A stretch of 64,000 nucleotides of DNA from Armatimonadota bacterium (GCA_041690135.1 JAWLHY010000013.1:116921-180920); one strand, 5' to 3'. Positions 35,045 through 56,100 are shown, counted from the stretch's first letter. Numbers and translations: made by a program. The notes: generated by a model not told the origin, from the sequence alone.

Positions 35045-35083
35045 CGCCTATCCCTCGCCTGCTTGTCGCGAGGAGCCCTGATT

Positions 35084-36916: not shown

Positions 36917-36986
36917 GCTGGCCCCAGTCATTCTCCTTTCGTCCCGTGCGAGTTTTCTTTTTGTGCAGGCAAACCGGTAGCGTTCC

Positions 36987-40235: not shown

Positions 40236-40256
40236 TACGAAGTAGTGAGGGAGTGA

Positions 40257-40850
40257 ATGACCAAACCGGCGGTGGTTCCTGAAGCCGAGGCGCGCGCGCG
40301 GATCCTGGGAGCCGCCGAACGCTTCTTCGCGGAGAAGGGTTACGCCGCGACCGCTGTCCACGAAATCACGGACGCCGCCGGAGTCAATCGCGCCCTCCTC
40401 TACTACTACTTCGAGGATAAGCACAGCCTCTACAAGGCGGTTCTGGAAGAGGGCACGGCCGAGTTCGACCGCATGCTCGACCGCGCCCTCTCCCACGACG
40501 GCTCCCACGCGGAGCGCCTCACCCGGGTGGTCCACGGCCACCTCGGCCTGATCTGGGACCGGCCCTACCTTGCGCGGTTGGTCCACCGCTGCCTGCTCGA
40601 CGGGCTCCAGAAGGAGTTCGGCCTGCTGGAGAAGTTCTCCAGCTGCGTCAATCGCATGGAGACCTTCTTCCGCGAGGGGATGGAGGCGGGTGCGTTCCGT
40701 CCGGTGGATCCCCAGATCATGGCGCGGACCTTCCTGGGTCCCACCTTCGTGGTCGCCCTGTGGCGCCTCTCCGAAGGCGAGATCTTCCCGCGCGAGCAGA
40801 TCGCCGACCAGATCGCGGTAATGCTGCTCCGGGGGATCGCGTCGGATTGA
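40257..40850 (+). CDS. TetR/AcrR family regulator
   Basis: RILGAAERFFAEKGYAATAVHEITDAAGVNRALLYYYFEDK. Confidence 0.93.
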   Translation: MTKPAVVPEAEARARILGAAERFFAEKGYAATAVHEITDAAGVNRALLYYYFEDKHSLYKAVLEEGTAEFDRMLDRALSHDGSHAERLTRVVHGHLGLIWDRPYLARLVHRCLLDGLQKEFGLLEKFSSCVNRMETFFREGMEAGAFRPVDPQIMARTFLGPTFVVALWRLSEGEIFPREQIADQIAVMLLRGIASD

Positions 40851-41179
40851 CGGTATGGCGTGGGTGGTAAAGAGCGGAGATCGAAATCCAACGCTCGCCC
40901 GCAGTGCTTCGTACCGTAGGGAATGTGACGCCGTTCCATTCCGCAGGCGGCAAAGCTGAAGCTGTTGCGCCAAACCGGACCGGAACCTGAGCCACTACGA
41001 GTTGGCAGAACAGACTCCGATTCAATCCCACGGAACGCTACGATACACCCGGCGAAGTTAGGGCGAGACGTTCCCTACGAGTGCCGCATTCGAAATGCTT
41101 GCCGGGAGACCCGACCCGCGCCGCCGGACATGCCCTGCCGACGTGCGAATATGATTGCCACCCATCGGATGCATCACTC

Positions 41180-41218
41180 AAAAAAATGGCGGGCCGAGAA
41201 CGTATACTCGGCCCGCCG
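41180..41218 (-). terminator. Intrinsic terminator for the minus-strand Cys-rich gene; a perfect 34-bp palindrome at 41230-41263 lies just upstream of it
   Basis: GGCGGGCCGAG/CTCGGCCCGCC stem with A7 on + (U-tract on -); GGTAGGGGAGGGAACTG|CAGTTCCCTCCCCTACC. Confidence 0.7.
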
Positions 41219-41276
41219 TCCTTCCAAGAGGTAGGGGAGGGAACTGCAGTTCCCTCCCCTACCCTAGCCGCTCTCG

Positions 41277-41831
41277 CTACTTGGCGCTCTTGGGGGCGCA
41301 GCAGCCGGCCTTTGCCGGGATGGCCGCGGCCTTCTTTGCCTTCAGGTCACAGCAGGCGGCGGCCGTCTTGCAGCATTCGGCGTTGCCGTTCCGGCAGCAG
41401 TCCGCAGCGGCCGCCACGCAGCATTCGGCGTTGCCGGTTTCGCAGCAGGCCAGGCTCGCCTTGCAGCAGTCCGCGTCATTTGCCACGGAAACTGGGGTTG
41501 CGGCCTTTGCCTTGCAGCACTCGGCTCCGGGCTTCTGGCAGCAGTCCTTCTTCTGGACACAGCAGTCCTTGGCCGCGGGCTTGCAGCACGGCTTGTTCTC
41601 GGCGCAGCAGGCGGCCTTCTTCACGCAGCACTGGGGTGCGGCGGCATGCTGGTGCTGCGCTTTGGCTGCGGCATGGTGCGCCGCATGACCCTGGGCACAG
41701 CAGGCCGGTTTAGCCGCGTTCCCCGTAGACTGCTTCGGTCCGGCCGCCACGAAGGCAGCGGGCATGGCAAGCAGGGCCAGGGCAATCCCGAATACGCGCG
41801 GCTGAAGGGCAACAGAATTCTTTCCAAACAT
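41277..41831 (-). CDS. Secreted Cys-Cys repeat, metallothionein-like protein
   Basis: AAGGA SD; signal peptide; 14 CC doublets (28 Cys) plus a His patch in 184 aa. Confidence 0.8.
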   Translation of the reverse strand: MFGKNSVALQPRVFGIALALLAMPAAFVAAGPKQSTGNAAKPACCAQGHAAHHAAAKAQHQHAAAPQCCVKKAACCAENKPCCKPAAKDCCVQKKDCCQKPGAECCKAKAATPVSVANDADCCKASLACCETGNAECCVAAAADCCRNGNAECCKTAAACCDLKAKKAAAIPAKAGCCAPKSAK

Positions 41832-41960
41832 CGTAGCAGATCCTTTCCGCCCCGTGGGCGGGTAACGAACTTGGCGAACAGACGACAGGGGTGCTGTGCG
41901 GAAACGGCAGGCGTTCCGCGAGGCCCGGTGGCGGCACGAGGCCGCGGTTGTGTCGGATCG

Positions 41961-42410
41961 CTACGAAGTGGGCGGGGCGCGCGAAGGGCGCTCCAGGGCT
42001 ACCGGCGGCGGTCGATGGTCGGTTTCTTCCGGCCAGCCCGCGAAGGTGAAGGCATCCAGGACCAACTCCGGCAGCGGCGCCGCCAGCGGCAGCGCGGCTA
42101 CGCAGAGATCCTCGATCAATGAGCCTGTTGGTACGAGAGCCGCGAGATCCGGCGCAGCGGAAACGGAATAGCGGCAGTGGCCCAGCATGGGGCTCGCCGC
42201 TTCCGCTACGGGAGCTTCCGCTCCGTGTCGGCACGCCTCCACCGCGACCCTCGCGCAGCAGGAAGCTTCGCTCTCCGGCCCCGCGGCCTTACTCCCAGGC
42301 GCCACGACGCAGGGAGTGCCGTCCTGGCAAACCCAGGCCGCACGCACCGGAGCGACCAGCGCGACAGTGAATGCCAGTATGAGGATGAAAGCGAGATACG
42401 GCCTGCGCAC
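41961..42410 (-). CDS. RAPP-ending leader peptide (DUF2946/CruR-like), uORF 1
   Basis: GTG start, signal peptide, six Cys, C-terminus RPPPVALERPSRAPPTS*. Confidence 0.7.
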   Translation of the reverse strand: MRRPYLAFILILAFTVALVAPVRAAWVCQDGTPCVVAPGSKAAGPESEASCCARVAVEACRHGAEAPVAEAASPMLGHCRYSVSAAPDLAALVPTGSLIEDLCVAALPLAAPLPELVLDAFTFAGWPEETDHRPPPVALERPSRAPPTS

Positions 42411-42607
42411 GGCTAAATGACCCCAACCGGATCGATCCGGTTCCCTCGATGTGCTCTCAGTATTCCCGGTTTTCCGATACCGAACTGAACTCCGAGAATT
42501 ATCGTCGTGCTGGCCGTAGATTATCATGGAATTCATGAAAATGCACGCAAAGGACCCGGCGGTAATCACCGGGTCCTACGCGTGCCGTTCCGTATTGTGA
42601 TGGATGC

Positions 42608-42958
42608 CTAGGCTGCGACTTCTACCTGGCCGTGGTCGTCGCAGTGGGTGCCGTGCGGGTGGTGCAGGTGCCCATCCACCAGGTAGTCCACGTGGTCGCC
42701 ATGGGGCACCGCTTCGTGGCCGCAGCCGGGTCCGTGCTGGTGGCCCGGATCGTGGGCGCCGCAGTTATGGTTGGGCGTGCAGTCCGCCGGGTTGGCCGCA
42801 CCCACGGCCAGGGCATGCTCGTCTACGTGGTCGCCATGCATGTGGTGGAGGTGTCCGTCGTGGAGGTAATCTGTGTGCCCCTCGTGTTTGATGGCCGTAT
42901 GACCGCAGCCCGCTCCGTGCTGATGAGTGTGGCCCGCATGTTCCTTACAGTCGCTCAT
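42608..42958 (-). CDS. His/Cys-rich two-repeat metal-binding protein
   Basis: 27 His and 6 Cys in 116 aa; duplicated HxHGxGCGHxAxxHxxHxDYLxDGHLHHxHGxHxDxH; GGAG RBS. Confidence 0.85.
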   Translation of the reverse strand: MSDCKEHAGHTHQHGAGCGHTAIKHEGHTDYLHDGHLHHMHGDHVDEHALAVGAANPADCTPNHNCGAHDPGHQHGPGCGHEAVPHGDHVDYLVDGHLHHPHGTHCDDHGQVEVAA

Positions 42959-42979
42959 GAGTTGCTCCTCCGGCCGCCC

Positions 42980-43360
42980 CTAGCGGCAGTTTTCTTTGGC
43001 GTGCGCGATGACGTTGGTGATGACCTCCGCGACATGCCCGTCGGCCAGGAAGTAGTAGATATGCTTCCCTTCCCGGCGGGTAGCCACAAGGTTTTCGGCG
43101 CGCAGTACCCGCAGTTGCTGGGACACCGTCGAGAGCCCCACCCCCATGGCTTCCGCGAGGTCGGTGACGCACCGCTCCCCGTCGAGAAGTTGGTCCAGCA
43201 GCCTCAAGCGCGAGGCATCGCCCGCAGCCCGGAAAATCCTGGCTGCCCGTTCCAGTGCCGCGTCGCTGGCTTCGGCGCCCCGGGTCATTGCTCCCGCGTG
43301 CGCCTCCCCCCGGCAACCCGGCCCGCCTTCCAGGGTCTCTCGATCATCGCTTCCGTTCAT
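42980..43360 (-). CDS. ArsR/SmtB family metalloregulator
   Basis: FRAAGDASRLRLL, ERCVTDLA, STVSQQLRVLR, REGKHIYYFLADGHV...AHAKE (alpha5-type D/H/H/E site). Confidence 0.92.
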   Translation of the reverse strand: MNGSDDRETLEGGPGCRGEAHAGAMTRGAEASDAALERAARIFRAAGDASRLRLLDQLLDGERCVTDLAEAMGVGLSTVSQQLRVLRAENLVATRREGKHIYYFLADGHVAEVITNVIAHAKENCR

Positions 43361-43394
43361 CACTTCATTATATGTTGAAGTGATCGATTGTAAA
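43359..43394 (-). promoter_or_regulatory. ArsR operator overlapping a probable leaderless promoter
   Basis: ATCACTTCA-N8-TGAAGTGAT; minus strand TTTACA-N16-TATAAT ending 6 nt before the ATG; no SD. Confidence 0.7.
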
Positions 43395-43489
43395 CCGCAG
43401 ATTTGCAATCGTTTCGCCGAGGACGGGAAGCGCCACGCAGTGGATCGCGCACAGGATCGCCATGAAGGAGCTGAGGCTCGATCCGCGCA

Positions 43490-45841
43490 TCAGTGGGCCT
43501 CTCCCGCCGCGTGACCCCCGCAGCACCCGTGAGCGTGATGCGAGTGGTGGTGCGCGGAACTACAGCAACCACCACTCGCTCCCGCGTGCGTGTGCGGGAC
43601 CGTCGGAGCGGCCACGGCCTGGAGCATGGGCAGTTCCAGCCCCCGCGGCGCGGCTACGGCGTGAATAGGGAGCGGGCTGCGTACCGGGTTCATGGTTTCG
43701 GTCCGGCTGGAAGGCATCCCGGTAGAACCGGCGAGGGATGTCTTCTCCCTCCGTCCCAGGAGGCGACTGGAATTGAGCATAATCAACAGGTCCGGCAGGT
43801 TGTGCGCGGCGGCGGCATACACGGGCGGCAGCAGGCCGACGGCGGCCAGTGGGAGCCCGCAGAGATTATAGAAGGCACTGAAGAACAGGTTCTGCCGGAT
43901 GGTGCGGACCGCCTTGCGGCCGATCCGGATCGCCTCCGGCACCAGGCGCCAATCGTCCCGGAGCAGGGTCAGGTCCGCCGCCTCCAGCGCCACGTCCACG
44001 CCTCGTAACCCCATCCCCACCCCCACGTGGGCCTGGGCCAGGGCGGGGGCGTCGTTGATTCCATCGCCCACCATCATCACCCGGCATCCGCTCGCCTGGA
44101 GCTCGCGGATAACCGCCGTTTTCCCCTCGGGCAACAGGCCCGCCCGGCATTCCACTCGCAGCGCGTCGGCCACGCGCCGCGCGGAAGCTGGGTGGTCGCC
44201 GGTGAGCATCAGGACGCGGCGGATACCCAGCGAGCGGAGCTCCTCCAGCGCCTCCCGCACTTCCGGACGCGGCGTATCGGAAAGCGCGATCCAACCGGCG
44301 AGCCTTCCCGCGCGCGCTACCAGCAGGACCGTTCTTCCCTCGTCCTGAAGCTGGCACACCCGCTGCTGGTTTCGCTGCTCGATCGAAATGCCCTGTTCTT
44401 CCAGCAGCCGGGTATTGCCCACCAGCCAGCGTTCACCCGCGATGCGCCCTTCGACGCCGCGCCCCGGGTGGGCCTGGAAGCTTTCGGCGTGGCCCAGGTG
44501 CAGGCCTTGGTGCCGGGCGTATCGCACCACCGCCTCCCCCACCGGGTGTTCGCTTTGCCGCTCGAGGCCGGCCACCGCCGCCAGCATCGCCGGAGCGGAG
44601 CCTCCATTGACGGTCTCCAGCGCGGCGACTTCCAGTTGTCCGGTCGTCACGGTACCTGTCTTGTCGAGCACCACGGTATCGACCGTTGCCAGTTGCTCCA
44701 GGGCGGCGCCTCCCTTGATGAGCAGGCCGCGCCGGGCCGCGCTGCCGACGCTGGCGATGACGACCACCGGGGTGGCCAGGGCGATGGAGCAGGCGCAGGC
44801 GGTCACCAGCACGGCAACCGCGTTCTCGATCCGGTGTGAGAGGAAGAAGGTAGCGGCCGCGAAGACCAGGATGCCGGGTAGGTACCAGGCGGTGAACCGG
44901 TCGGCAAACCGCTGGGTACCGGATTTGCGGGACTCCGCCTCTTCCACCAGGCGGATGATCCCGGCGAAAGTGGTATCCGCCCCCACCCGGGTCGCTTCGA
45001 TCTCCAGGCTGCCGGCCTGCACCAGCGTGGCCGCGAAGACGGGATCTCCCGGCTTCTTGTCGACGGGAAGAGACTCCCCGGTTACCGTGGACTCGTCGAC
45101 CGGCGCCAGCCCGCGGAGCACCGTGCCGTCCACGGGCACGCGCTCGCCGGGACGAACGAGGATGCGGTCGCCCACGGCCACTTCGGAAATGGGCAGTTGC
45201 CGCTCCGTAGCCCCTTCCAGCACGCGCGCGGTGGCGGGGCGCGAGGCGACCAGGCGCTGCAGGGCTTCCCGGCTACGGCCGGCGCACAGCGCTTCGAGCC
45301 GGTCCGCCACGTGCATGAAGAACAGCACGATCCCCGCCGTGACCCACTCCCCGGTGGCCGCGGCCGCCGCCATTCCGAGGACCAGCAGCGAGTGACTGGT
45401 GAGCCGTCCCCGCATCATCCCCCGGCCGACTGCCAGGAATTGCTTCCAGCCCGCCGCCAGCAGGGCCGCGGCTTTCACCGCCGCGGGCACGGGTGCAAGC
45501 AGGCGGTCGAACAGGCCCAGGTGCTCCCCCGTGGCCAGCAGGAGCACCGCGGCCGTTATCCCGGCCAGCATCTCCCAGCCGGGAAGCCGTTCGGTAGCCG
45601 GGGCGGAAGTTGTCACCACCTCTTCCGGCACCTGATAGCCCGCGCGGGTAATCGCCTCGGCCAGGTGGCGAACCTCTACCTGGTCGGGGGCAAACTCCAC
45701 GGTCGCCCGTGCGGCGGCGAGGAGTACGGATACCCGGAAGACGCCCGGAAGCCGGTTCAACAGCGCCTCCACCTCGGAGGCACAAGACGGACAGTCCATC
45801 CCCTGGATGGGCAGTTCCACGGTGGTAGTGGTAGCGGACAT
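43490..45841 (-). CDS. Heavy-metal P1B-type ATPase with non-canonical TM motifs
   Basis: GMDCPSC HMA; TGES; CAC in place of CPC; DKTGT; SEHP; GDGINDAP; YN; HNLPD; CC/His tail. Confidence 0.9.
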   Translation of the reverse strand: MSATTTTVELPIQGMDCPSCASEVEALLNRLPGVFRVSVLLAAARATVEFAPDQVEVRHLAEAITRAGYQVPEEVVTTSAPATERLPGWEMLAGITAAVLLLATGEHLGLFDRLLAPVPAAVKAAALLAAGWKQFLAVGRGMMRGRLTSHSLLVLGMAAAAATGEWVTAGIVLFFMHVADRLEALCAGRSREALQRLVASRPATARVLEGATERQLPISEVAVGDRILVRPGERVPVDGTVLRGLAPVDESTVTGESLPVDKKPGDPVFAATLVQAGSLEIEATRVGADTTFAGIIRLVEEAESRKSGTQRFADRFTAWYLPGILVFAAATFFLSHRIENAVAVLVTACACSIALATPVVVIASVGSAARRGLLIKGGAALEQLATVDTVVLDKTGTVTTGQLEVAALETVNGGSAPAMLAAVAGLERQSEHPVGEAVVRYARHQGLHLGHAESFQAHPGRGVEGRIAGERWLVGNTRLLEEQGISIEQRNQQRVCQLQDEGRTVLLVARAGRLAGWIALSDTPRPEVREALEELRSLGIRRVLMLTGDHPASARRVADALRVECRAGLLPEGKTAVIRELQASGCRVMMVGDGINDAPALAQAHVGVGMGLRGVDVALEAADLTLLRDDWRLVPEAIRIGRKAVRTIRQNLFFSAFYNLCGLPLAAVGLLPPVYAAAAHNLPDLLIMLNSSRLLGRREKTSLAGSTGMPSSRTETMNPVRSPLPIHAVAAPRGLELPMLQAVAAPTVPHTHAGASGGCCSSAHHHSHHAHGCCGGHAAGEAH

Positions 45842-46053
45842 GGAAAAACACCCTCTTCTGCCGCGAGCAGCCATGCCGGAATGCTGATTGTGCGGGCCTG
45901 GCGGCGACCGGCCGCGGAGGCGCCGAATCCCCCACCATGGGCTTTCCATCCGGAAAGGGCCGCGAGTAGGGGCCGAAACCCGGACCCCGCTCCGAAACCG
46001 CTACTGGAGGCAGCCGAATCACGAGGGGCGCGGGACGGGGGATCGCTTGAGGA

Positions 46054-46464
46054 TCAGGCAGCAGGGGGGCCGCGGGAGGGGCGGAGGGGGTGGCAACCGG
46101 CCAGGGTCGCCTGGGGGGAGATCGGGGAAAGCTCGAGAGCGCTGGTGGCCGTGGAAGCGTGGAAGCCGAGTGTCTCTGGTTTCGGCCGCGCCTGGGCGAG
46201 CCACGCGCACGCGGGACAGGAATGATCCCCGAAAGGCGCGTCCGCCTCCGCGTGCACCGCCGTGAGGACCACTCCCGGTTCCCCGGCGTGCGCAGAGTCG
46301 CCCGCGCACCGGTGACCGAGAACCCCGCCCGTCCCCGCAAAGAGGAGACAGGCAGCCAGAAGCCAAGCCACGGCCCGGGAGCAAGACAGCACAAAACCGA
46401 ACCCTGCCACAGGGTTCAGGTAAGGTGTCCGGGGCCGGTCTATCGCTCTCCTGGTACCACTCAT
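46054..46464 (-). CDS. RGPP-ending leader peptide (DUF2946/CruR-like), uORF 2
   Basis: Hydrophobic segment, GHRC, HSCPAC, C-terminus HPLRPSRGPPAA*; start uncertain. Confidence 0.7.
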   Translation of the reverse strand: MSGTRRAIDRPRTPYLNPVAGFGFVLSCSRAVAWLLAACLLFAGTGGVLGHRCAGDSAHAGEPGVVLTAVHAEADAPFGDHSCPACAWLAQARPKPETLGFHASTATSALELSPISPQATLAGCHPLRPSRGPPAA

Positions 46465-46515
46465 TGCCGAGAACGACCTATCCAACGTCGCAGCAGGCTT
46501 AACCACCCAACGAAT

Positions 46516-47481
46516 TCATCGGATGCCGTCCCGCTTCTCTGTAGGGATACTACGCGCTCTCCAGGGGACACTCCTCCCAAGTCCCGCGCGGTTGAGCACC
46601 TTTTCCAGAACCACGTCCGGACCGACCACTGCCAGCCCGGTTTTTGCCACCTGCACGGCTCGTTCCGACTTTCCGGAGCTGACGTAGCAGAGAGCGAGCC
46701 AGCGGAAGGCGTCGGTGACGGCGCCGAACTCCTCCTCGGACAGCGCGCGGTCGCGCTGGGCGAGGGCCAGGGCCTGGTTCAGGTGTCGTTCCGCGGCGAC
46801 GAAATCCCGGAAATAGACGAGATGGAACCGCCCGACCTCGGTGTGGATCTCGAAGGATTCGGGGTTATGCCGGAGCCCTTCCTGCAGGAAGCGCAGCCCG
46901 GCTTCCGCGTGCTTTCCCGATTCGCAGAGGATGGCGCCGCCCGTGGTGTAGCCGCGGATGAAGTGGGGGTCCAGCCGCGTCATCAAGCGGAAGAACGGCA
47001 GGGTCTGTGCCTGGTCCCGGTGGATCTCCATCCCCTGCTCATCCGAGTAAGGCTTCACGGCGCGCTCCAGATCCCCCAGGACGCCCCGGAAGTCTTCTTC
47101 CTTGCTGGGGATCGCGAGGACGTGCCCGTGATTTCCGTTCTCCTCCTCGTGATGCTCGTCGTGATGGCCGTCGTGCGCGTGTTCGGCCTCGCCGGCGGCC
47201 TCATCGTGCTCGACCCCGCCGTGGAGCACCTGTTCGCTCTTCACCCACATCATTCGCGCGAGGAGACGGCGCCCCTCCCACGTGGCCCCGGAAAGGGACG
47301 CTTCTTCCGAAGCCGTGGTCAACGGGCCGGAACGCAGGAAACCGCTTCCCGCCCCCAGCCCGATCAGCAGCGCGACCAGCGCCGTGCCGCGAATCAGGTC
47401 CGCCGCAGCCTGGCGTTTCCGCGCGGAAGCGTGGGAGCGGCCCGGTAGGAGAGACTCCGCCATCCGATCAGCGCTGGACAT
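46516..47481 (-). CDS. Membrane-anchored TPR protein with a His/Glu-rich insert
   Basis: N-terminal TM; EHAHDGHHDEHHEEE; TRLDPHF, FLQEGLRHNP TPR-like helices. Confidence 0.75.
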   Translation of the reverse strand: MSSADRMAESLLPGRSHASARKRQAAADLIRGTALVALLIGLGAGSGFLRSGPLTTASEEASLSGATWEGRRLLARMMWVKSEQVLHGGVEHDEAAGEAEHAHDGHHDEHHEEENGNHGHVLAIPSKEEDFRGVLGDLERAVKPYSDEQGMEIHRDQAQTLPFFRLMTRLDPHFIRGYTTGGAILCESGKHAEAGLRFLQEGLRHNPESFEIHTEVGRFHLVYFRDFVAAERHLNQALALAQRDRALSEEEFGAVTDAFRWLALCYVSSGKSERAVQVAKTGLAVVGPDVVLEKVLNRAGLGRSVPWRARSIPTEKRDGIR

Positions 47482-48304
47482 AGCTCTCCGGCTCCTGGAT
47501 CGATTCCGGCTGCTTCTTGGCGCGCTGGACGAACTCGTCGATGCAGGGCGGACAGCAGAAGCGGTATTCCTTGCCGCCGATGGTCCACACGAACCGGGGG
47601 TTTGCCTTGGTGGAGGTGATGGGGCAGATCCGGTCGCCCGGGCGCGGGTTCATGTCGTGGCTCGACTGGATGCCCCGGTACTTCGCGGCGGCAGACTGGG
47701 TGCCGTTGGCGCGGATGTCCGCCTCCGTGTACCGGCCTCCCGGCGTGGCGTACAGTGCGGACACCTCGTCCGCTCCCGCCCCGCCCGGCATGGAGAGCAT
47801 TTCCAGCATCTCGGGGTGGACTTCGTCGGCCCGGTGCGGCTTCAGCTCGAAACGCGCGCGGTAGCCCTTTCCCTCCAGGGGGAGCGTCATCGCCACGGTT
47901 ACGGGTGCGCCCACCAGGCTTTCCGGCAGCTGACCCAGGAACGAGGAGGACTGGCCGTTCGGGTCGCCGGGCTGGGGGTCGGCGCTCAGCGTGACGGGCG
48001 CGGATTCCACCTCGTCGTCGCCCTGCACCTGGGCCACTACTTCGGGGAGCGGGGCCGGCGTCAGCTGCGCTTCATCCTTCCCCAGGAGATACACCCGCAG
48101 TCTTCCGCCCTTCTCCAGCACGGCCTCTACGTGGTGGTTGCCGATCGCCTGGATCGCGCCGCCGTGGCGGCTGGAGTGGGCGTGCTCCTTCGCGTCGTGA
48201 GCCCTGGCACCCGTGCGGGATGCGGACAGCATGAGGACCGAACCGGCGGTCACCGCACCCACCAGTCCGAGGAGAGCAACTCTGGAATTCGGCTTGAACG
48301 GCAT
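47468..48304 (-). CDS. Secreted His-rich protein with a C-terminal YHS/TRASH-like domain
   Basis: Signal peptide; HAHSSRHGG...HHVE; CPITS...YRFCCPPCIDEF. Confidence 0.8.
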   Translation of the reverse strand: MPFKPNSRVALLGLVGAVTAGSVLMLSASRTGARAHDAKEHAHSSRHGGAIQAIGNHHVEAVLEKGGRLRVYLLGKDEAQLTPAPLPEVVAQVQGDDEVESAPVTLSADPQPGDPNGQSSSFLGQLPESLVGAPVTVAMTLPLEGKGYRARFELKPHRADEVHPEMLEMLSMPGGAGADEVSALYATPGGRYTEADIRANGTQSAAAKYRGIQSSHDMNPRPGDRICPITSTKANPRFVWTIGGKEYRFCCPPCIDEFVQRAKKQPESIQEPESYVQR

Positions 48305-48394
48305 CTTCTTCTCCGATGCAACAGTCTGTGCCCGGCACCTCTACGGATGGGGTGGGTGCCGTCAGCCCACGTCACCCTATGGTGGCATCTTACC

Positions 48395-48446
48395 TTAGAT
48401 TATTGAGGTAGTGTTTCATTAGATTCTTGAGGTTGTACTTCATTAA
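48395..48446. promoter_or_regulatory. Tandem Fur/Zur-like boxes in the divergent promoter region
   Basis: 24-bp direct repeat: TTATTGAGGTAGTGTTTCATTAG and TTCTTGAGGTTGTACTTCATTAA (TGA-N9-TCA). Confidence 0.55.
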
Positions 48447-48462
48447 ATCCTCGGCCTTGAGT

Positions 48463-48491
48463 TTGACGCTGGTTCTGGCATATGCTACAGT
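48463..48491 (+). promoter_or_regulatory. Sigma70-type promoter for the uORF3-porin-ABC transcript
   Basis: TTGACG-N17-TACAGT with extended TG, same layout as the ilv promoter. Confidence 0.65.
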
Positions 48492-48535
48492 ACTGCACTA
48501 CCCGCACGGGTCGTGCGAATGGAGTATAGCCTGCC

Positions 48536-48901
48536 GTGCCCGGCCTCTTTCGACAGTTCAAAAAGAGCCAGCGAAGCCTATCCGCCGTTCTGATCCTGGT
48601 CTACGTGCTCGCCCTGGGTCTCCTCACCGGAGGTCACCAGTGCCTCGCGGGGCCGGCAGCGGATGGGCGGCACGTGCACGTGGGTGCGGAGCAGGTACTC
48701 GCGTCTCTCGCGGACGACAGCCCGACGCATCATGCCTGTCCGGCGTGCACACTCCGGGCAGGCGCCGAGGCCCAACTCCAGATGGCCCCGGCGTTCCCAA
48801 ATCCCGCGGCGGACTACCGGCAAGTCCTGCCCCTTTCCGTCCCCGACTTCCTTACCCTCTCCTCGGTCCCCTACTCCCTCCGTGGACCTCCCGTTTCCTG
48901 A
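48536..48901 (+). CDS. RGPP-ending leader peptide (DUF2946/CruR-like), uORF 3
   Basis: GGAG RBS; signal peptide; HQC, HVH, HHACPAC; C-terminus PYSLRGPPVS*. Confidence 0.75.
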   Translation: MPGLFRQFKKSQRSLSAVLILVYVLALGLLTGGHQCLAGPAADGRHVHVGAEQVLASLADDSPTHHACPACTLRAGAEAQLQMAPAFPNPAADYRQVLPLSVPDFLTLSSVPYSLRGPPVS

Positions 48902-49115
48902 TGGGTTTCCTTACCGGGATCGACGCCTGAGCGTCGTCTCCCACCCCACCGCCTCAAGCCTTTACCGGATGCTGTTCCGCTAGTACGGATCTCCGGTAAT
49001 GTGATTGCAGCCAAGTAACCAGGCTGTCGGCTCCCGGCAATGCGTCCAACCTCGCTGACGCGGCCACTCCGGACGGAGCTACGACAGCCCATGAAAAACC
49101 CTGAATCAGGAACAC

Positions 49116-50566
49116 ATGATGGAGAAATCAATCAAGGTCGCCCTGCTGGCGGCCGGAGTCCTGGCCGCCGTGCCCTGCATGGTCGCTGCCGAAGAAGGAA
49201 AAGAGTCCGCTGCCCCGAACAACTCCGCCGCCTCGGAGAGTGGCAATGCGCAGTCCGGCACCCCGGCCGCCCCGTCGTCGCGGGAAGCGGAGATCGAGAG
49301 CCTCAAGAAGGCGATCGAAGAGTTGCAGAAGCGCGTGATGGACCTGGAGAAAGAAAAGAAGGCGGAAAGCGACAAGCCCGTCGAGCCGGTCCCCGCCGTG
49401 CCCGAACCGACCCCCACCCCCCCCCCCCCCCCCCCCCCCCGCGGGCCCCCCGGGGCCCGGGCGGGGCCGGCGCTACCTTTTTGCCGAACATCAGTGTCGT
49501 GGGGAATATTATCGGCCGCGCTGGAGACACGAGAGCGTTTCCGGGCCGCGGGCGCACGCACCTGGAGGAACTGGAAGTCGCGTTCCAGGATGCCGTAACT
49601 CCGAAACTCCGCTACGATGTCTTCCTTTCCGCAGAGAAGGAAGAGAGCTGGTCGGTGGGCCTGGAAGAAGGTTTCCTTACAGCTACCGGTCCGCTTAAGA
49701 ACCTGAACATCATCGCCGGCCGGAAGCGCACCCCCATCGGACGGTTCAACCCCCTCCACCCGCACCAGTGGCTCTTCATCACCCAGCCTACCTCGCACGC
49801 GTCGTTGCTGGGGGACCACGGGCTCATCGCGGATGGCGCCCTTGCTCATTACATTCTCCCAACCAAGGGGTTCTATGCCGCCCTGGAGTTCGGCGCGTGG
49901 CAGACGGCGAGCCATCACGCTCATGAAGAGGAAGAGCATGAAGATGAGCACGAGGAAGAACACGAAAAGGACCACAAGAAGGGCAAGAAGGTGCTCCGCC
50001 GGCCAGGAATTGCGCAAGCGGAGCACGACCACGGCGGCGAGTTAGGCTTCCAGGGGGGCGAAAACGGCGCCTACCATACCCGGTTTCACCTGGCCAAGGC
50101 GTTAGATCGCAACACGGAGATCGAATTCGGTGCCACACGCTACTGGGGACGTGGTCCCAGTCCGCACCTGACCGGACGGCGAATGCTGGCCGTGAACGGA
50201 CTCGACTTCAGTTATCGCAGCTATCCGGGCGCCTACAAGCGCCTGTGGTTCCTGGCGGAGTTGCTGGCGCACGAGACGAGCGATATCAACGGAAGCACCA
50301 AGCTGCGGCCCGGCGGCTTTGCGATGCTGGCGTACCGGTGGAACCGCTATTGGGAAGCGGGCATTCGTGGCGACTACACGAAGTTCCCCTACCCCATCGA
50401 AGGCAAGGAATATGGCGGTAGCCTGTTCCTCACGAAGTATCTTACGGAACAGACTTCGCTGCGACTGGAGTATCGACATGAGCGCGATCCCCAGTACGGA
50501 GCGTCCAATGGAGTTTTCTTCCAGCTCCTGTTCGGCTCCGGGCCGCACACGCATGAGATCCAGTAG
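49116..50566 (+). pseudogene. Metal-uptake outer-membrane beta-barrel protein with a His-rich loop, split by a frameshift in a C24 tract (possibly an artefact)
   Basis: Signal peptide and coiled coil in the 49116 frame; barrel part (FLPNISVVG, EELEVAF, EEGFL, GRFNPLHPH, HHAHEEEEHEDEH, GPHTH) in another frame; C run at 49417-49440. Confidence 0.75.
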
Positions 50567-50603
50567 GCCCAACCACCTTCCCATCCAGATAGGAGAATGG
50601 CTG

Positions 50604-51512
50604 ATGAAGTTTTTTCAGTTTGCAGTTGCCGGCCTTTGCTTGATGCTCATTTCCGCGGCGCGGCCCGCCGAAGCGAAGGTCGATGTGATGGCAGCCAACC
50701 AGGACCTCGCCTGGGTGGCAAAAACCATAGGCGGCAAGAACGTGAGCGTGGATTACCTGGCCAGCAGCAAACAGGACCCCCACCTCATCGATCCCCGGCC
50801 GAGTCAGGTAGTTCGCCTGTCCCGCACCGACCTAGTCGTCCGGATCGGCCTGGATCTCGATCTGTGGCTCGATTCGTTGATCCGCGCCGCCGGCAACTCC
50901 AAGATCGTCCAGGGAGCGCCGGGATATGTTGACTGCTCTCGGGGAGTGCGGTTGCTCCAGATTCCGCAGGGCAAGCTGGACCCGTCTCGCGGGGATCTGC
51001 ACATCTACGGAAACCCGCATTATTTCTTCGGCCCGTCCAACCTGTCCATCGTCGCCCGTAATGTCATGGACGGACTAAAACGGGTGGACGGCAAGAACGC
51101 GGCCGAATACGAAGCGAACTATAACGCCCTGGCGGCCCGTCTGAAGGAGGCACATGCGAAGTGGAAGGCCCGCCTGGCCGGCGAGAAAGGTAAGGCGGTG
51201 GTGGCCTATCACCAGTCGCTCATCTACTTCCTGACGGACTTCGGCATCCGGGAGTACGCCCAGGTGGAGCCGCGGCCGGGCCTGGAGCCGACTCCCGGCC
51301 ACATCTCCAGCGTGGCCAAGGCGATGAAGGCGGACGGCGTGAAGGTGATCCTTACGGAGAATTTCCGGCCGCGACGGTTTGCGGATCTCCTTTCCCGGCA
51401 GTCGGGAGCCAAAGTAGTGGTGGTGCCGGGCGGCATCGGCGCCGAAAAGGGTCTGGACGACTACTTCACCTTCATGGATGCCATGGTGGAGCGAGTGGCC
51501 GGCGCCCTGTAA
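50604..51512 (+). CDS. Zn/Mn ABC transporter substrate-binding protein (ZnuA-like)
   Basis: QDPH, GNPHY, AYHQS, GLEPTPGH; signal peptide ending AEA. Confidence 0.9.
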   Translation: MKFFQFAVAGLCLMLISAARPAEAKVDVMAANQDLAWVAKTIGGKNVSVDYLASSKQDPHLIDPRPSQVVRLSRTDLVVRIGLDLDLWLDSLIRAAGNSKIVQGAPGYVDCSRGVRLLQIPQGKLDPSRGDLHIYGNPHYFFGPSNLSIVARNVMDGLKRVDGKNAAEYEANYNALAARLKEAHAKWKARLAGEKGKAVVAYHQSLIYFLTDFGIREYAQVEPRPGLEPTPGHISSVAKAMKADGVKVILTENFRPRRFADLLSRQSGAKVVVVPGGIGAEKGLDDYFTFMDAMVERVAGAL

Positions 51513-51595
51513 CCCGGAACCCATTCTCCCTTTCCAGAGTAGTGACCGATGTTGCTGCCGCCGGACCCCAGGGAGGTCTGGCGGTGGTCGGCATG

Positions 51596-51621
51596 GAAGA
51601 AGGGCTTCGGCCCTTCTTTCG
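51596..51621 (+). terminator. Intra-operon UUCG hairpin / weak terminator
   Basis: AGAAGGGC-TTCG-GCCCTTCT followed by TTC. Confidence 0.5.
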
Positions 51622-51648
51622 GGCTTTCTGAACGAACATGGTTTGGTG

Positions 51649-52413
51649 ATGACGGCACTGGTGGAATTCCGCGACGCGCAGCTCGGTTACGGCCGTCGTG
51701 ATATCGTCCTGCGGGACATTAATCTGCGTATCCACTCCGGCGAATACTGGGGGATCGTGGGCCCGAACGGCTCGGGAAAAACCACACTGCTCCGGACGCT
51801 ACTTGGCCTGCTGCGGCCGGTCGCGGGGGAGGTGGTGGCGCAGCGAGAGGGCGCGCCGCTGCGGTTCGGCTACGTCCCGCAGCGCGAAACGGTGGATGCC
51901 CTCTTCCCCATCCCGGTGCTCGATATCGTCGTCATGGGCCGCTACGGGCGCATCGGCGTGGCGAAACGGCCGGGCAAGCGGGATCGGGAGATTGCCCGTG
52001 AATGTCTGGATCACGTGGGCATCGGTAATCTCGCGCACCGCAATTACCCGGAGCTTTCCGGCGGGCAGCGCCAGCGGGTACTGATCGCGCGAGCCCTGGC
52101 CACGGAGCCGGATCTCCTCGTTCTGGATGAGCCGACCCATGGGATGGATATGCCCAGCGAGCACGGCCTGCTGGAACTGGTCCGCTCGCTCCACACGCAG
52201 CGCGGCCTCACGGTGGTGCTGGTATCGCACCTGCTCGGCAGCGTCGCCGACAGCACCGACCGGATCGCCATCATCGCCCACGGCTCCCTGGAAGCGGGCA
52301 CCCGCGAGGAGATGCTCACCGCCCAGCGGCTCTCCCGGCTCTATGACATGGAAGTGAAGGTTCACCAGATCGACGGCCGATTCGCGGTGATGCCGGGGAA
52401 CGGCGCGCCATGA
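51649..52413 (+). CDS. Zn/Mn ABC transporter ATPase (ZnuC-like)
   Basis: GPNGSGKTT, GYVPQ, LSGGQRQR, LDEP, VSH. Confidence 0.92.
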   Translation: MTALVEFRDAQLGYGRRDIVLRDINLRIHSGEYWGIVGPNGSGKTTLLRTLLGLLRPVAGEVVAQREGAPLRFGYVPQRETVDALFPIPVLDIVVMGRYGRIGVAKRPGKRDREIARECLDHVGIGNLAHRNYPELSGGQRQRVLIARALATEPDLLVLDEPTHGMDMPSEHGLLELVRSLHTQRGLTVVLVSHLLGSVADSTDRIAIIAHGSLEAGTREEMLTAQRLSRLYDMEVKVHQIDGRFAVMPGNGAP

Positions 52414-53300
52414 GTACCGTTCTCGAAATGCTGCAAGAGGGGTTCGTCCAGGACGCGCTCAAGGCGGCGCTCATGGTCGCCCTGATCTGCTCGTACCTCG
52501 GCGTGTTCGTGGTCCTCAAGCGCATCGTCTTTGTGGGTGCGGCCCTCTCGGAGACGGCCTCCCTGGGGGCCGCGCTGGCCTTCTTCCCCCCGATCGTCAC
52601 GGTTTTCGACCAGGTGGTGGAAGCGGCGCCGGCTTTCGAGCCGCTGCGGCACTACAAGCCGCTGGTTTTCGCCCTGACGCTGATGCTCCTCTCCGTGGCC
52701 TTCTTCTCGCAGCAGCGACTGGGCCGGAGGCTGCCGCGGGAGGCGATCATCGGGGTGGTCTTCGCCGGGGCGATCGGGCTCACCCTCCTGGCCCGGAGCC
52801 AGGTGCCCGCCCACGCCGAGCACGAAATGGACGCGCTCATCGGCAACATCCTGGGCGTGGAACCGCTGGAGTTGACGGAGCTGGCTGTCGCCTCCGTGGT
52901 GATCGGCTTACTGCAGATCATTTTCTATAAGGAGTTCGTGCTCGTCTCGTTCGACCCCGAGGTAGCGCGCACTCTCGGCTACCGCGCCCACCGGTGGGAA
53001 CTCCTCTGGTACCTCAGCCTGGGGGTGATGATCGCTGTATCCATTCACGTGGCCGGCACGATCCTGGTGTTCGCCTACCTGGTGATGCCCGCGACGGCGG
53101 CACTGATGCTCTCCCGCCGGATGGGCGTGGTGCTGCTGCTCGCGGTGCTGGTCGGCGTCGCCTCGACCCTGGCGGGGGTGCTGCTCTCCATCTCCCCCGC
53201 CGACCTCCCCACCAGCCCCGCCATCGTAGGCTGTATGGTCCTCCACGTGGCTGCCGCGTGGCTGCTGCGGGGGGTTATCGGGAGGAAGAAGGCTGACTGA
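52410..53300 (+). CDS. Zn/Mn ABC transporter permease (ZnuB-like)
   Basis: LGVFVVLKRIVFVGAALS, SFDPEVARTLG, GTILVFAYLVMPA. Confidence 0.92.
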   Translation: MSTVLEMLQEGFVQDALKAALMVALICSYLGVFVVLKRIVFVGAALSETASLGAALAFFPPIVTVFDQVVEAAPAFEPLRHYKPLVFALTLMLLSVAFFSQQRLGRRLPREAIIGVVFAGAIGLTLLARSQVPAHAEHEMDALIGNILGVEPLELTELAVASVVIGLLQIIFYKEFVLVSFDPEVARTLGYRAHRWELLWYLSLGVMIAVSIHVAGTILVFAYLVMPATAALMLSRRMGVVLLLAVLVGVASTLAGVLLSISPADLPTSPAIVGCMVLHVAAAWLLRGVIGRKKAD

Positions 53301-53311
53301 GCTCCAGTCAA

Positions 53312-53335
53312 GTAGCTGGCGACTCAAGTCGCCAG
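53312..53335 (+). repeat. GTAG-type REP palindrome
   Basis: GTAG-CTGGCGAC-TCAA-GTCGCCAG immediately after the permease stop. Confidence 0.55.
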
Positions 53336-53568
53336 TTGAAACTGCGCAAAGTCGGCACCCCCTCGGGGCGTAAACCTTCGCCGACTCCCCCACTTTCATA
53401 ACGGTTGGGCTGATTCGGCCAGAGCATCAGGCAGGAGCGTTCCGTTGGCGCGGACTTGATCGGGTGTTGTCAGCAACTGTAAATCGCATTGGCTGTGAGA
53501 CCAAAACTTTCTCCTCCGGCATCCGTTTAGATAAGCGGTCTATCGTCGCCCGGACAGGAGGAAGCTTG

Positions 53569-56100
53569 ATGTTCAATCGCTCGGCTTTCGAAAACTCCCG
53601 CCCCGCCGGGATCCCTACGCTCGAGATCACCACTACGGGACCGTTTCCCGAGGCGGGAGTTCGCCGGTTCATCCCGCTTCAGAAGACGGTTCTCGAGGGA
53701 GAAATCGCGGGACCGCTGGCCTCCCTCACGCTGACGCAGGTCTTCGCGTTTACGAAGGAAGACCTGCCCCGCCCCGTTGAGGCCGTCTATCGGTTTCCGC
53801 TGCCCGGCGATGCCGCCGTGATCCAGGTCTGCGTGACGTTCGGTGAGGTGCGCATCGAGGCCGCGCTGCGGGAGCGCCCCGAGGCGGAAGCGGAATACGA
53901 TCGCGCTCGTGGCGAAGGGCGGCAGGCTGCCCTCGCCACCCGGGAGTCGCCGGATGTCTTCACTCTGCAGGTAGCCGGTATCGCACCGGGACAGGAAGTC
54001 CGGGTCGAGACGCGCTTCGTGCTCCTGGCCCATCCGGAGGGTGACGGATGGTCGCTGCGGGTTCCGCTGACGGCGGCCCCGCGCTACGTCCGCGCGGACG
54101 AACTCGGCTCCCGGCACGCGGAGGGCCAGCCCCTGGCCCTCCTCCGGGACCCCGGGCACCGGTTCGGCCTCAACCTATCCCTGCGCCACACCGAGGGCAT
54201 CGCTTCCCGGACACACCGTCTCACCTTTACTCCGGACGAAGATGCGACCCGCGTGGCATTAGCCGATGGTGAAGTGATCCCGGACCGGGACTTCGTGCTG
54301 ACCTGGACCGGCACGCGGGAGGAAACGCGCCCTACTCTGCGCGTAGAACTCCATCCCGATCCGGCGGAGGACCGGCTCTATTTCATGGGCCTGGTCACGC
54401 CACCCCGCCGGGCCGACCAGGTCACGCCCGATCCGCGAGAAATCCTCATCCTGGTGGACCACTCCGGGTCGATGAGTGGAGCCAAGTGGGAAGCGGCCGA
54501 TTGGGCCGTCAAGTCGTTCCTTTCCACCCTGACGGAGCGTGACCGCTTCAACCTGGGCCTCTTTCACGACAAGACGCGGTGGTACTCTCGGTCTCCCGTT
54601 CCGGCCACGCCTCAGCAGGTGGAGGCAGCCGTCGAGTTCCTGATGAAGCACCGGGACTCCGGAGGCACGGAACTGGGGGTTGCCCTGGAACAGTCGCTCA
54701 AACAGTCCAGGTCCGAGGACCCGGCGGCCCGGCACGTCCTGATCGTAACCGATGCCCAGGTGTCGGACAGCGCCCGCCTGCTCCGGCTCGTCTCCGCGGA
54801 GGCCAACCGGCCCGACCGCCGGCGGGTGAGCGTGATCTGCATCGATGCCTCTCCCAACTCATTATTGGTGCGAGAGCTTGCCGCGCGCGGTGGCGGTCAG
54901 ACCCACTTCCTCACCAGCTCTGCGGAAGAAGGCGACATCACCACCGCTCTCGATGAGTTGCTCATCAGTTGGTCCGCCCCGATCTTCACCGGCTTGCGGC
55001 TGGAAGTCGATGCGACCGCGGTAGAGACTCCTGAGGGTCCGGGGCACGAAACCGGAAACGGGTCCACCTGCATCGACCTGGGTGAGCTCCCGGCGGAGCG
55101 CCCTGTGTGGGTTGCCGGCAGGGCGCCTGCTTCCCGCCTGGACCAGCTCCGGCTCCGGTTGAGCGCAGATGGCCAGCCGGTGGCGACATGCCGGATGCCG
55201 ATCGGCTCGCGCTCGCTCCCGGCGGTAAAGACTCTGTTCGGCGCTCGCCGGGTGCTTGCCCTGGAATACCTGGCGGAAGCGCGCTATTCCGCGCCGGAGC
55301 TGGCGGCGGAGCTCCGCCGGCTCGGCTATTCTGAAGCCGAGATCGGTGGGGAGTCGGATGCGGGTTCCCTGTATTCGGAGAACCGCGGCGCTGCGGGGCG
55401 CGATGCCCTGCGTCCCCTGCTCGTGCGAGAAGCGCTTGCGTGCGGTATCGCTTCCGCGGAGACAGCGTTCGTTGCGACCCGCGCCGAAGCCGGAGAACCG
55501 ATCTCTGGGACGGTTTACGTAGCCAACGCCCTGCCGGAGGGCTGGTCCGACGACTTCGTGGGAGGAGCGATGTACGGCGCGGCTTTCGCGGCGGCGCCGC
55601 CATCTGCCCTGGCGGGTCCCCCGCTTGCCAGCAGCAGCCGCAGCATCGATGCCATGAGCGGTGCGTTTGATCTCGGCGGTTCCGGTGTCTTCGAACGCGT
55701 CGGGCGGATCAAGTATAAGAAGGTCGCCGAGCCACAGTCGGAAGAGGAGCCCCTTCTCTTGTTCGCGGGCTGCCCACACTTCCAGGCTGGAGAAGCGGTG
55801 CTCTACGATTCCGAGGCTGAGAACAGTCCCCGGATTGGCTCGCGACTACAGCGCCTCTGGCTCCGGCTCCTGACGGCGCCAGCAGAACCACAGCAGGTTC
55901 CGCGCGACCTGATGCTCCTGGTGTATGTCGGCGACCATTCGGTCCCTCGGGCGAAGGTCGCGGTCCGCGCGTTGCTGTCGCAAGGGGCGAGGCCGCTGAA
56001 CCTCACGGTTCGTCCCGGAGAGCAAGTGCGCCTGGTGTTGGTCGACCCCTCCGCGGCCTGGGGTGGTTGCCCTCCGAAGATCGAGGTGCGCATCCAGTAA
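53569..56100 (+). CDS. VIT + von Willebrand factor A domain protein
   Basis: VEAVYRFPLP (VIT); LVDHSGSM, GGTEL, TDAQ (MIDAS); AGGAGG RBS. Confidence 0.88.
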   Translation: MFNRSAFENSRPAGIPTLEITTTGPFPEAGVRRFIPLQKTVLEGEIAGPLASLTLTQVFAFTKEDLPRPVEAVYRFPLPGDAAVIQVCVTFGEVRIEAALRERPEAEAEYDRARGEGRQAALATRESPDVFTLQVAGIAPGQEVRVETRFVLLAHPEGDGWSLRVPLTAAPRYVRADELGSRHAEGQPLALLRDPGHRFGLNLSLRHTEGIASRTHRLTFTPDEDATRVALADGEVIPDRDFVLTWTGTREETRPTLRVELHPDPAEDRLYFMGLVTPPRRADQVTPDPREILILVDHSGSMSGAKWEAADWAVKSFLSTLTERDRFNLGLFHDKTRWYSRSPVPATPQQVEAAVEFLMKHRDSGGTELGVALEQSLKQSRSEDPAARHVLIVTDAQVSDSARLLRLVSAEANRPDRRRVSVICIDASPNSLLVRELAARGGGQTHFLTSSAEEGDITTALDELLISWSAPIFTGLRLEVDATAVETPEGPGHETGNGSTCIDLGELPAERPVWVAGRAPASRLDQLRLRLSADGQPVATCRMPIGSRSLPAVKTLFGARRVLALEYLAEARYSAPELAAELRRLGYSEAEIGGESDAGSLYSENRGAAGRDALRPLLVREALACGIASAETAFVATRAEAGEPISGTVYVANALPEGWSDDFVGGAMYGAAFAAAPPSALAGPPLASSSRSIDAMSGAFDLGGSGVFERVGRIKYKKVAEPQSEEEPLLLFAGCPHFQAGEAVLYDSEAENSPRIGSRLQRLWLRLLTAPAEPQQVPRDLMLLVYVGDHSVPRAKVAVRALLSQGARPLNLTVRPGEQVRLVLVDPSAAWGGCPPKIEVRIQ

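Follow-up and report, generated by a model that had tools for sequence, protein, structure and literature searches.

Among the described systems closest to the elements considered here is CruR (Bp2923) of Bordetella pertussis, presented as the type member of the DUF2946 family (PF11162), in which the RAPP motif, the CxxC motif, and the spacing between them are each reported to be needed and termination is reported to be Rho-dependent (Roy et al., 2022; PMC9426467). A survey published in EMBO J in 2025 describes toeprints that place the proline codons of CruR in the P and A sites of the arrested ribosome, and ranks RAPP and RGPP as the motifs giving the strongest arrest (PMC12992588). For CutF of Rhodobacter capsulatus, stalling is reported to melt a stem-loop in which the ribosome-binding site is hidden (10.1101/2025.02.05.636593), and CutF-like genes are described as preceding genes for outer-membrane efflux proteins, CusB, CusA, TonB-like proteins, and PCuAC (Ozturk et al., 2023; 10.1101/2022.11.11.516240). 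The mature peptides of both CutF and CruR have been reported to be undetectable in cells. Here we describe three small open reading frames (ORFs), designated L1, L2, and L3, that lie in a 12-kb island of metal-related genes within a 64,000-nucleotide (nt) stretch of bacterial DNA (GCA_041690135.1 JAWLHY010000013.1:116921-180920; hereafter the window). We think it reasonably probable that all three are cis-acting arrest leaders, set before genes for a cysteine-rich exported protein (L1), a P1B-type heavy-metal ATPase (L2), and a porin-like protein followed by a ZnuABC-type importer (L3).

The three ORFs share one plan. Basic residues precede a hydrophobic N-terminal stretch in each (Kyte-Doolittle 15-mer maxima of 2.98 for L1, 2.13 for L2, and 2.74 for L3), cysteine and histidine motifs follow, and the C-terminus is a tail reading PSRAPPTS in L1, PSRGPPAA in L2, and SLRGPPVS in L3, so that two residues separate the proline pair from the stop codon in every case. 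Past its anchor, L2 carries GHRC and then DHSCPAC, 44 residues ahead of the tail; L3 repeats this arrangement with GHQC and HHACPAC, again followed by 44 residues and the tail. L1 is without CxxC and carries a putative signal anchor, the motif W-x-C-x-DG-x-PC, a CC pair, and GHC. A shared design of hydrophobic N-terminus, Cys/His motifs, and the tails SRAPPTS, SRGPPAA, and LRGPPVS, with CPAC limited to L2 and L3, was already recognized in a preliminary description of this DNA and is borne out here, as is the C-richness it noted around the stop codons: the first 50 nt past each stop hold C and G in the ratios 23/15 (L1), 24/11 (L2), and 20/13 (L3), placing them at the 12th, 2nd, and 11th percentile, respectively, of same-strand control windows. 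The distance to a co-oriented metal gene had been put at 130-215 nt; it is 129 nt for L1 and 214 nt for L3, and for L2 it is 104, 179, or 212 nt, according to which start codon of the ATPase gene is chosen.

The genome that carries the window is 9.1 Mb in size, with 65% GC, and contains 97 matches to DUF1559 compared with none in 14 control genomes, an expansion that we take to mark it as a member of the Planctomycetota. A profile built from L2, L3, and four relatives (type A) has matches in 36 of 401 genomes of this phylum, the present genome included. At 27 of 30 fetched loci, an ORF holds CxxC and R[AGS]PP 43-45 residues apart, and in 21 of those 27 the motif lies exactly two residues before the stop. 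The only invariant columns of the resulting 27-sequence alignment are one histidine, CxxC, and R.PP, with a mean column identity of 22%. When 1.84 billion cluster representatives were searched with the same profile, 1,794 proteins were found at E<=0.001. Among the best 150 of these, R[AGS]PP occurs within 10 residues of the end in 144 and is followed by exactly two residues in 116, and the distance from CxxC to the tail is 43 residues in 100 proteins, 44 in 36, and 45 in five, so that 141 fall within 43-45. In a word-index search the type A profile had 11 matches, none of them named or assigned to a Pfam family, and L3 used alone had no match.

Because 43 of the best 150 profile matches also fit PF11162 at E<=0.01 (best 1.6e-7), with no other Pfam family recurring, L2 and L3 appear to form a divergent branch of the DUF2946/CruR family, though one that lies outside Pfam's own cut-off. 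L3 itself matches PF11162 with an E value of 0.0031 and 18.7 bits, below the gathering cut-off of 23.7; three of six close relatives match at E<=1; and a six-frame scan of the whole genome gave no PF11162 match above the cut-off. The likeness to DUF2946 that had been suggested for all three leaders is retained for L2 and L3, in their CxxC, spacing, tail, and profile, and is lost for L1, which has no CxxC; none of the three reaches the cut-off. In one relative (locus L161, G049:C107), two type A leaders, at 6851-7327 and 8827-9186, lie 1.5 kb apart on the minus strand, one 5′ of a gene for a PHP-domain protein and the other 5′ of a TonB-dependent receptor gene followed by ExbB, ExbD, and TonB.

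L1 falls into a second family (type B), present in 25 of the 401 genomes and represented by three L1 paralogues on contig C3 of its own genome, one of them at an E value of 1e-12. At 26 of 27 loci of relatives there is a cysteine-bearing ORF whose tail ends 2-5 residues from the stop. Two cysteines and R.PP are invariant across the alignment, and the N-terminal motif has near-invariant W, D, G, and C. On comparison of the type B and type A profiles, only the last 20 columns align (87% probability). Judged from these alignments, L1 represents a separate family that has just the arrest tail in common with type A and does not belong to DUF2946. No Pfam, NCBIfam, or source name covers the type B family, and its profile gave seven matches in the word-index search, none named or with a Pfam family.

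The tail motifs are otherwise avoided in this organism. Across 6,199 confident ORFs, RAPP occurs 16 times where residue composition predicts 107 (a ratio of 0.15) and RGPP 17 times where it predicts 93 (0.18), making them approximately six-fold rarer than expected; the corresponding figures are 157 against 131 for AAPP (1.20) and 79 against 113 for AGPP (0.70). The EMBO J 2025 survey ascribes the same depletion to the translation-impeding nature of these motifs (PMC12992588). At least nine signal-anchored ORFs with such a tail are present in the genome, L1-L3 included. Three of the six others (Table 1) are of the L1 type and lie on contig C3, where one precedes MerB-like and YHS/YtkA/cupredoxin genes. 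A further tail-bearing ORF, on contig C15, is located 5′ of a fused secDF gene, the classical place of ApdA-type monitors; another, on C17, precedes genes for a beta-carbonic anhydrase and a SulP transporter, and its paralogue on C23 (E 1.5e-9) precedes a gene for an uncharacterised protein of 118 amino acids (aa). Single-protein searches of 301 genomes with the C17 and C15 leaders gave clean matches in their own genome only, the matches in other genomes being weak and four of six being interrupted by stop codons. Given the scarcity of the motifs in its proteins and the tail ORF that stands before secDF, it is plausible that RAPP/RGPP serves as an arrest module in this organism.

For two of the three leaders, the pairing with the downstream gene is conserved. 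A porin-like homologue stands behind a type A leader in seven relatives (BLASTP E 1e-25 to 1e-163), with this pair followed in turn by ZnuA and an ABC ATPase (ZnuC) in one genome of the same family, and an exported CC-repeat protein is encoded 95-143 nt past an L1-type leader in three same-family genomes. Of the leader-target pairs whose conservation had been proposed as a check, those of L3 with the porin and L1 with the CC-repeat protein are upheld, and that of L2 with the ATPase was not found in the relatives scanned. The remaining type A partners are ExbB (five cases), TonB-dependent-receptor-like proteins (five), an ABC ATPase (one), and a DUF1559 protein (one); those of type B are CusB-like adaptors (seven), outer-membrane efflux proteins (three), YtkA (one), ArsP (one), and others.

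The identity of these partners bears on the question of what the leaders would sense. RAPP/RGPP leaders are classically monitors of Sec/YidC, and some are described 5′ of DsbA or thioredoxin genes (PMC12992588, PMC10987492), while disulfide formation is proposed to relieve stalling in a model for CutF (10.1101/2025.02.05.636593). L1-L3 might likewise be arrest peptides that report export, disulfide formation, or envelope redox rather than metal, and that are released by the pull of translocation or by a disulfide; that the conserved residues are mostly cysteines, and that one tail ORF of this genome precedes secDF, would fit. We consider this quite improbable. All identifiable partners in both families are concerned with metals or with TonB/outer-membrane transport and none with Sec or Dsb; an invariant histidine together with CxxC suits a metal site; and control by CruR is reported to be independent of its signal peptide (PMC9426467).

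Taking L1-L3 as metal-responsive arrest leaders, we infer the following course of events. Each would be translated, targeted to the membrane, and act in cis. The element S-R-[A/G]-P-P-x-x-stop would halt the ribosome when the P and A sites hold the proline codons, three codons short of the ORF's end; as two sense codons and the stop would still lie ahead, the leading edge of the arrested ribosome should lie approximately at the stop codon. Cysteines and histidines of the nascent chain would bind metal, in L2 and L3 through the histidine and CxxC located 43-45 residues from the arrest site and in L1 through W-x-C-x-DG-x-PC, CC, and HC, about 64 residues from it, and bound metal would alter the duration of arrest. 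Zinc as well as copper is allowed as the sensed metal, because of the combination of His with CxxC and the ZnuABC partner. A ribosome arrested at the 3′ end of the leader would then decide expression past the C-rich spacer of 104-214 nt, either by blocking Rho loading and termination, in the manner of CruR, or by remodeling the RNA near the ribosome-binding site, in the manner of CutF. Genes for Rho and elongation factor P (EF-P) are both present in the genome and score above the respective cut-offs. A Rho-dependent route as in CruR would be in keeping with the length of the spacers and with the excess of C over G past the stop, which goes beyond the median control window in 30 of 35 leaders; only eight of the 35 fall below the 5th percentile, and these relatives are not independent of one another. 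By such a route, L3 would govern uptake through the porin-like channel and ZnuABC, L1 an exported CC-repeat metal binder, and L2 the P1B ATPase. L3 could operate as CruR does, with metal releasing the arrest and turning uptake off; for L1 and L2 the sign would have to be reversed, as in CutF.

Several observations weigh against the reading of L1-L3 as arrest leaders. Frames of at least 80 residues that end in R[AG]PP, two or three further residues, and a stop are as common in a reversed-sequence control (42) as in the real genome (39). Codon-usage scores are weak (5.1 for L1, -5.5 for L2, and 17.4 for L3), in L2 and L3 a different frame scores about equally, and gene calling by codon usage left out L1 and L2. 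High-GC genomes contain many long spurious frames, and the three could be chance open frames in GC-rich DNA followed by ordinary intergenic sequence. The tail alone is indeed not significant in such DNA, but the combined motifs are specific: CxxC-(42-46)-R[AG]PP-(2-3)-stop occurs twice in the genome and W.C.[DN]G..C...R[AG]PP-(2-3)-stop three times, and neither occurs in the control. Homologues that agree in their invariant residues, in spacing, and in where they stop, found for types A and B in the numbers of phylum genomes given above and among the 1,794 protein clusters, speak in the same direction, and the relatives' identities of 17-36% to the first sequence of their profile alignment argue against a single contaminating sequence. 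A chance origin therefore strikes us as very improbable indeed.

A second difficulty is position. Neither L1 nor L2 opens its array, and each has co-oriented genes 5′ of it; L3 has the first-gene arrangement, with a promoter-like site upstream and the porin-ZnuABC genes downstream. Internal placement among other metal genes, together with apparent export signals and conserved Cys/His in all three, is what might be seen if L1-L3 were small exported or anchored metal-binding proteins acting in trans, as a chaperone or a periplasmic sensor of the kind proposed for CzcI and CopL, with a tail that has no regulatory role for the gene that follows. Some CutF-like proteins without a proline motif are thought to work differently (10.1101/2022.11.11.516240), which would also be in keeping with a function in trans. 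Such a function seems to us unlikely. Nothing beyond the Cys/His positions and the tail is conserved (mean column identities of 22-23% in the two families), and an AlphaFold2 model of L2, with a mean predicted local distance difference test score of 62, is confident for helix 24-49 only and reveals no sensor fold past this anchor helix. In addition, the tail keeps a constant place, 2-3 residues short of the stop, and in type A also a set distance from CxxC; its motifs are shunned elsewhere in the proteome; and the site directly 5′ of the partner gene and the long spacer are both conserved.

The remaining points against L1-L3 as arrest leaders concern their targets, family, and output. No P-type ATPase was found among the downstream ORFs of the 25 type A relatives scanned, and no leader of this design was found 5′ of any of 80 ATPase relatives, most of them from other phyla; four R.PP tails were seen near these 80 genes, none of them upstream with the leader design. 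The L2-ATPase pair therefore stands alone in what was searched. Neither L1 nor L2 matches PF11162, so that of the three profile comparisons foreseen earlier only that with L3 gives a signal, and a sub-threshold one. As to the output, a clear switch finds no support in the RNA models. Minimum-energy folds pair the last codons and stop of the leader with the ribosome-binding site of the target gene in L1 and L3, but a duplex as good is found in 88 of 832 random windows for L1 and in 240 of 833 for L3. When the footprint of the arrested ribosome is forced open, accessibility of the ribosome-binding site shifts only slightly or in the opposite sense, from 0.27 to 0.34 for L1, from 0.37 to 0.44 for L3, and from 0.64 to 0.46 for L2. 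Finally, L2 and L3 have one sensor design and targets of presumably opposite transport direction, so that control of one and the same sign cannot serve both.

Two features of the spacer RNA are treated here as leads only: the weak hairpin at the L3 stop (Table 1) and a GC hairpin of the L1-type spacers. The latter is short and lies directly 5′ of the ribosome-binding site in three of four L1-type spacers, with stem sequences that differ; RNAalifold folds the four spacers with 10 pairs, one of which has a compensatory change, and local fold z-scores for these spacers range from -0.4 to -1.2 and are not significant. An Rfam scan of positions 40000-54000 gave three matches, all sub-threshold and at chance level.

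The leaders are distributed over two diverging gene arrays that fill 41.2-53.3 kb of the window (Table 1). The minus-strand array runs from a TRASH-like protein of 278 aa through a TPR/His-rich protein, L2, the P1B ATPase, an ArsR/SmtB regulator, a His-rich protein, and L1 to the CC-repeat protein; the plus-strand array comprises a promoter-like site, L3, the porin-like gene, and ZnuA-, ZnuC-, and ZnuB-type genes. The CC-repeat protein is presumed to be a periplasmic metal binder, and a search of the ESM Atlas with it returned clusters without names (best score 0.86). Between the arrays, the AT-rich tandem repeats at 48390-48437 may be an operator; the repeat has, to our eye, presumably no recognizable Zur box. 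The additional layer of Fur/Zur control envisaged in the preliminary description finds no gene to carry it here, as no Fur-family gene lies in the window and none of the four in the genome is on this contig. A terminator-like hairpin with a T run occupies 46397-46419 on the minus strand, inside the N-terminal coding part of L2 and about 100 nt past the stop of the TPR gene; the upstream transcript may stop there, or the hairpin may help to control L2.

Table 1. Features of the metal region (window coordinates) and the further tail-bearing ORFs of the genome
Feature	Position	Strand	Remarks
Intrinsic-terminator-like hairpin	41188-41217	-	strong; 11 pairs, then T run; closes minus-strand array
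CC-repeat exported protein	41277-41831	-	184 aa; signal peptide; 14 Cys-Cys pairs; without known family
L1-to-CC-repeat spacer	41832-41960	-	129 nt; C 0.40, G 0.28; short GC hairpin just 5′ of purine-rich ribosome-binding site
L1, putative leader ORF, type B	41961-42410	-	149 aa from GTG 42410; longest form 41961-42569, 202 aa
His-rich protein	42608-42958	-	116 aa; without known family
ArsR/SmtB-type metalloregulator	42980-43408	-	promoter-like site (11/12 matches) at 43394-43367
P1B heavy-metal ATPase	43490-45949	-	N-terminal HMA domain; His/Cys-rich C-terminal tail; start M1, M26, or M37
L2-to-ATPase spacer	45950-46053	-	104 nt (longest start), up to 212 nt (M37); C-rich directly past stop
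L2, putative leader ORF, type A (DUF2946-like)	46054-46464	-	136 aa from ATG 46464; longest form 46054-46506, 150 aa
TPR protein with His/Glu-rich stretch	46516-47481	-	directly 5′ of L2, co-oriented
278-aa protein	47468-48304	-	weak C-terminal TRASH/YHS-like Cys motif; minus-strand array begins here
Two tandem 24-nt AT-rich direct repeats	48390-48437		divergent promoter region; 79% alike; third partial copy just downstream
Sigma-70-like promoter match	48463-48491	+	9/12 matches, with TG; 5′ of L3
L3, putative leader ORF, type A (DUF2946-like)	48536-48901	+	121 aa
Weak terminator-like hairpin	48890-48905	+	covers last codons and stop of L3
L3-to-porin spacer	48902-49115	+	214 nt; C 0.35, G 0.25
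Porin-like outer-membrane gene	49116-50566	+	signal peptide, coiled coil, Pro-rich linker, 16-strand barrel with His/Glu-rich loop; frame broken at C24
ZnuA-type metal-binding protein, ABC importer	50619-51512	+	
ABC ATPase, ZnuC-like	51478-52413	+	true start probably internal
ABC-3 permease, ZnuB-like	52410-53300	+	
Six further ORFs ending in R[AG]PP plus 2-3 residues	L001 5825-6259(+), 9191-9679(-); L002 6845-7303(-); L003 6806-7162(-); L004 6718-7104(-); L005 6758-7142(-)		

The porin-like gene is split by a run of 24 C residues (49417-49440), with the signal peptide, coiled coil, and poly-proline segment in one frame and the barrel in another. The run is either an assembly error in homopolymer length or slipped-strand variation. 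The homologue in a same-family genome is intact (451 aa), and a model of the partner built from the intact homologue is a 16-strand barrel that in structure comes closest to general porins, OmpT and Omp32 among them. The ATPase encoded behind L2 carries CAC in place of the usual CPC at the metal site of its fourth transmembrane segment (residues ~383-385); among the 80 relatives, 74 have CPC and CAC is found only in the closest, which is 51% identical. CPC is also present in the second ATPase of the window (31732-34215). A second metal cluster, just upstream at 31344-40850, encodes a P1B ATPase, a ZIP transporter, an RND adaptor, an RND pump, and a TetR regulator, and no arrest-type leader was found in it.

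The novelty of this arrangement is smaller than first supposed, as RAPP/RGPP leaders 5′ of metal, RND efflux, and TonB genes have already been published. The EMBO J 2025 survey extends the partners of small secretory proteins with C-terminal RAPP/RGPP beyond Sec, to TonB receptors, YcnI, PCuAC, PepSY, and Dsb/thioredoxin (PMC12992588), Roy et al. refer to a small number of planctomycete homologues (PMC9426467), and a table of genes downregulated in a zur mutant, in a paper on the Zur regulon, has a Caulobacter DUF2946 gene preceding czrCBA. The terms "zinc", "porin", and "efflux" are absent from the main text of the survey, in which "ATPase" appears in ABCF references only; "zinc" and "ATPase" are absent from the main text of Roy et al. 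(2022), and "zinc" and "P-type" from the Ozturk preprint; the supplements of these papers may already list planctomycete members or ATPase and ZnuA neighbors. In a literature search, we found no paper that joins CruR, CutF, or an arrest peptide with zinc or a P-type ATPase. New within the scope searched are the CC-repeat protein, the P1B ATPase, and the porin with ZnuABC as partners, the unannotated second sensor family, and the unusually dense use of such leaders in one genome.

To our knowledge, tests of metal-sensing arrest leaders are limited to two proteobacteria, with copper as the metal in both. In the present locus, three putative leaders are found within 7 kb, before a storage-type protein, a P-type ATPase, and a zinc-type uptake system, and as a naturally occurring system it lends itself to asking which metal is read and what determines the sign of control. 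The two leader families are scattered over the Planctomycetota, and one has no annotation at all, and ORFs of this kind are missed or mislabeled by genome annotation. The presence of such a leader could be a sign that genes for outer-membrane uptake and RND efflux are controlled post-transcriptionally, in a phylum whose regulation is little studied. A broader proposition, which we advance tentatively and regard as doubtful, is that S-R-A/G-P-P-x-x-stop constitutes a portable arrest cassette placed, in this organism, on at least three unrelated sensor regions and before at least nine operons, and that two leaders of the same family steer opposite transport within one 12-kb island. If this were true, the spacer RNA or small differences between leaders, and not the sensor family, would fix the sign of the response, the sensed metals would include zinc and not copper alone, and the L1-type family would count as a class of efflux/storage leaders that is new and without annotation.

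Among known systems, L2 and L3 are most readily compared with CruR. Like it, they are small, presumably exported ORFs with CxxC at a fixed distance from a near-stop C-terminal motif (45 residues, within one or two, in CruR according to Roy et al. (2022); 44 in L2 and L3), and the spacer that follows is long and GC-rich (162 nt for CruR, 104-214 nt for the present leaders). CruR precedes an outer-membrane uptake gene, for a TonB-dependent receptor, as L3 precedes the porin-like gene and ZnuABC; type A relatives are likewise found 5′ of TonB-dependent receptor and ExbB genes, and Rho is encoded in this genome. They differ from CruR in falling below the Pfam cut-off, in having RGPP for RAPP, in the two rather than three residues that follow the proline pair, and in a modal family spacing of 43-44. 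Moreover, the host is presumably a planctomycete and not a proteobacterium, the ZnuABC and P1B ATPase partners point to zinc or other metals and not to copper alone, and L2 lies 5′ of a presumed exporter, which would be the wrong sign for CruR-type logic.

CutF offers the complementary case, that of a Sec-targeted leader with a cysteine motif in which a proline motif stalls the ribosome in the presence of metal and the detoxification gene is turned on, and the partners of CutF-like genes (outer-membrane efflux proteins, CusB, and CusA) match those of L1-type relatives. CutF itself has CxxxC, an EF-P-dependent PPP motif, and a short spacer with a demonstrated masking stem-loop, whereas the leaders described here have R[AG]PP, spacers of 104-214 nt, and no masking helix found to be significant, and the sensor region of L1, W-x-C-x-DG-x-PC, matches no Pfam family. 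With ApdA, ApdP, and RQH, the leaders share R-A/G-P-P near the stop in a small protein with a localization signal, a co-oriented downstream gene, and avoidance of the motif elsewhere; the classical members differ in monitoring Sec/YidC, and L1-L3 do not lie 5′ of secA, secDF, or yidC. The occurrence of several tail ORFs in one genome also has a counterpart, with seven tested in Streptomyces lividans in the EMBO J 2025 survey (PMC12992588) and at least nine candidates here. The principle is established by CruR, CutF, and that survey, and L1-L3 add to it members with new targets.

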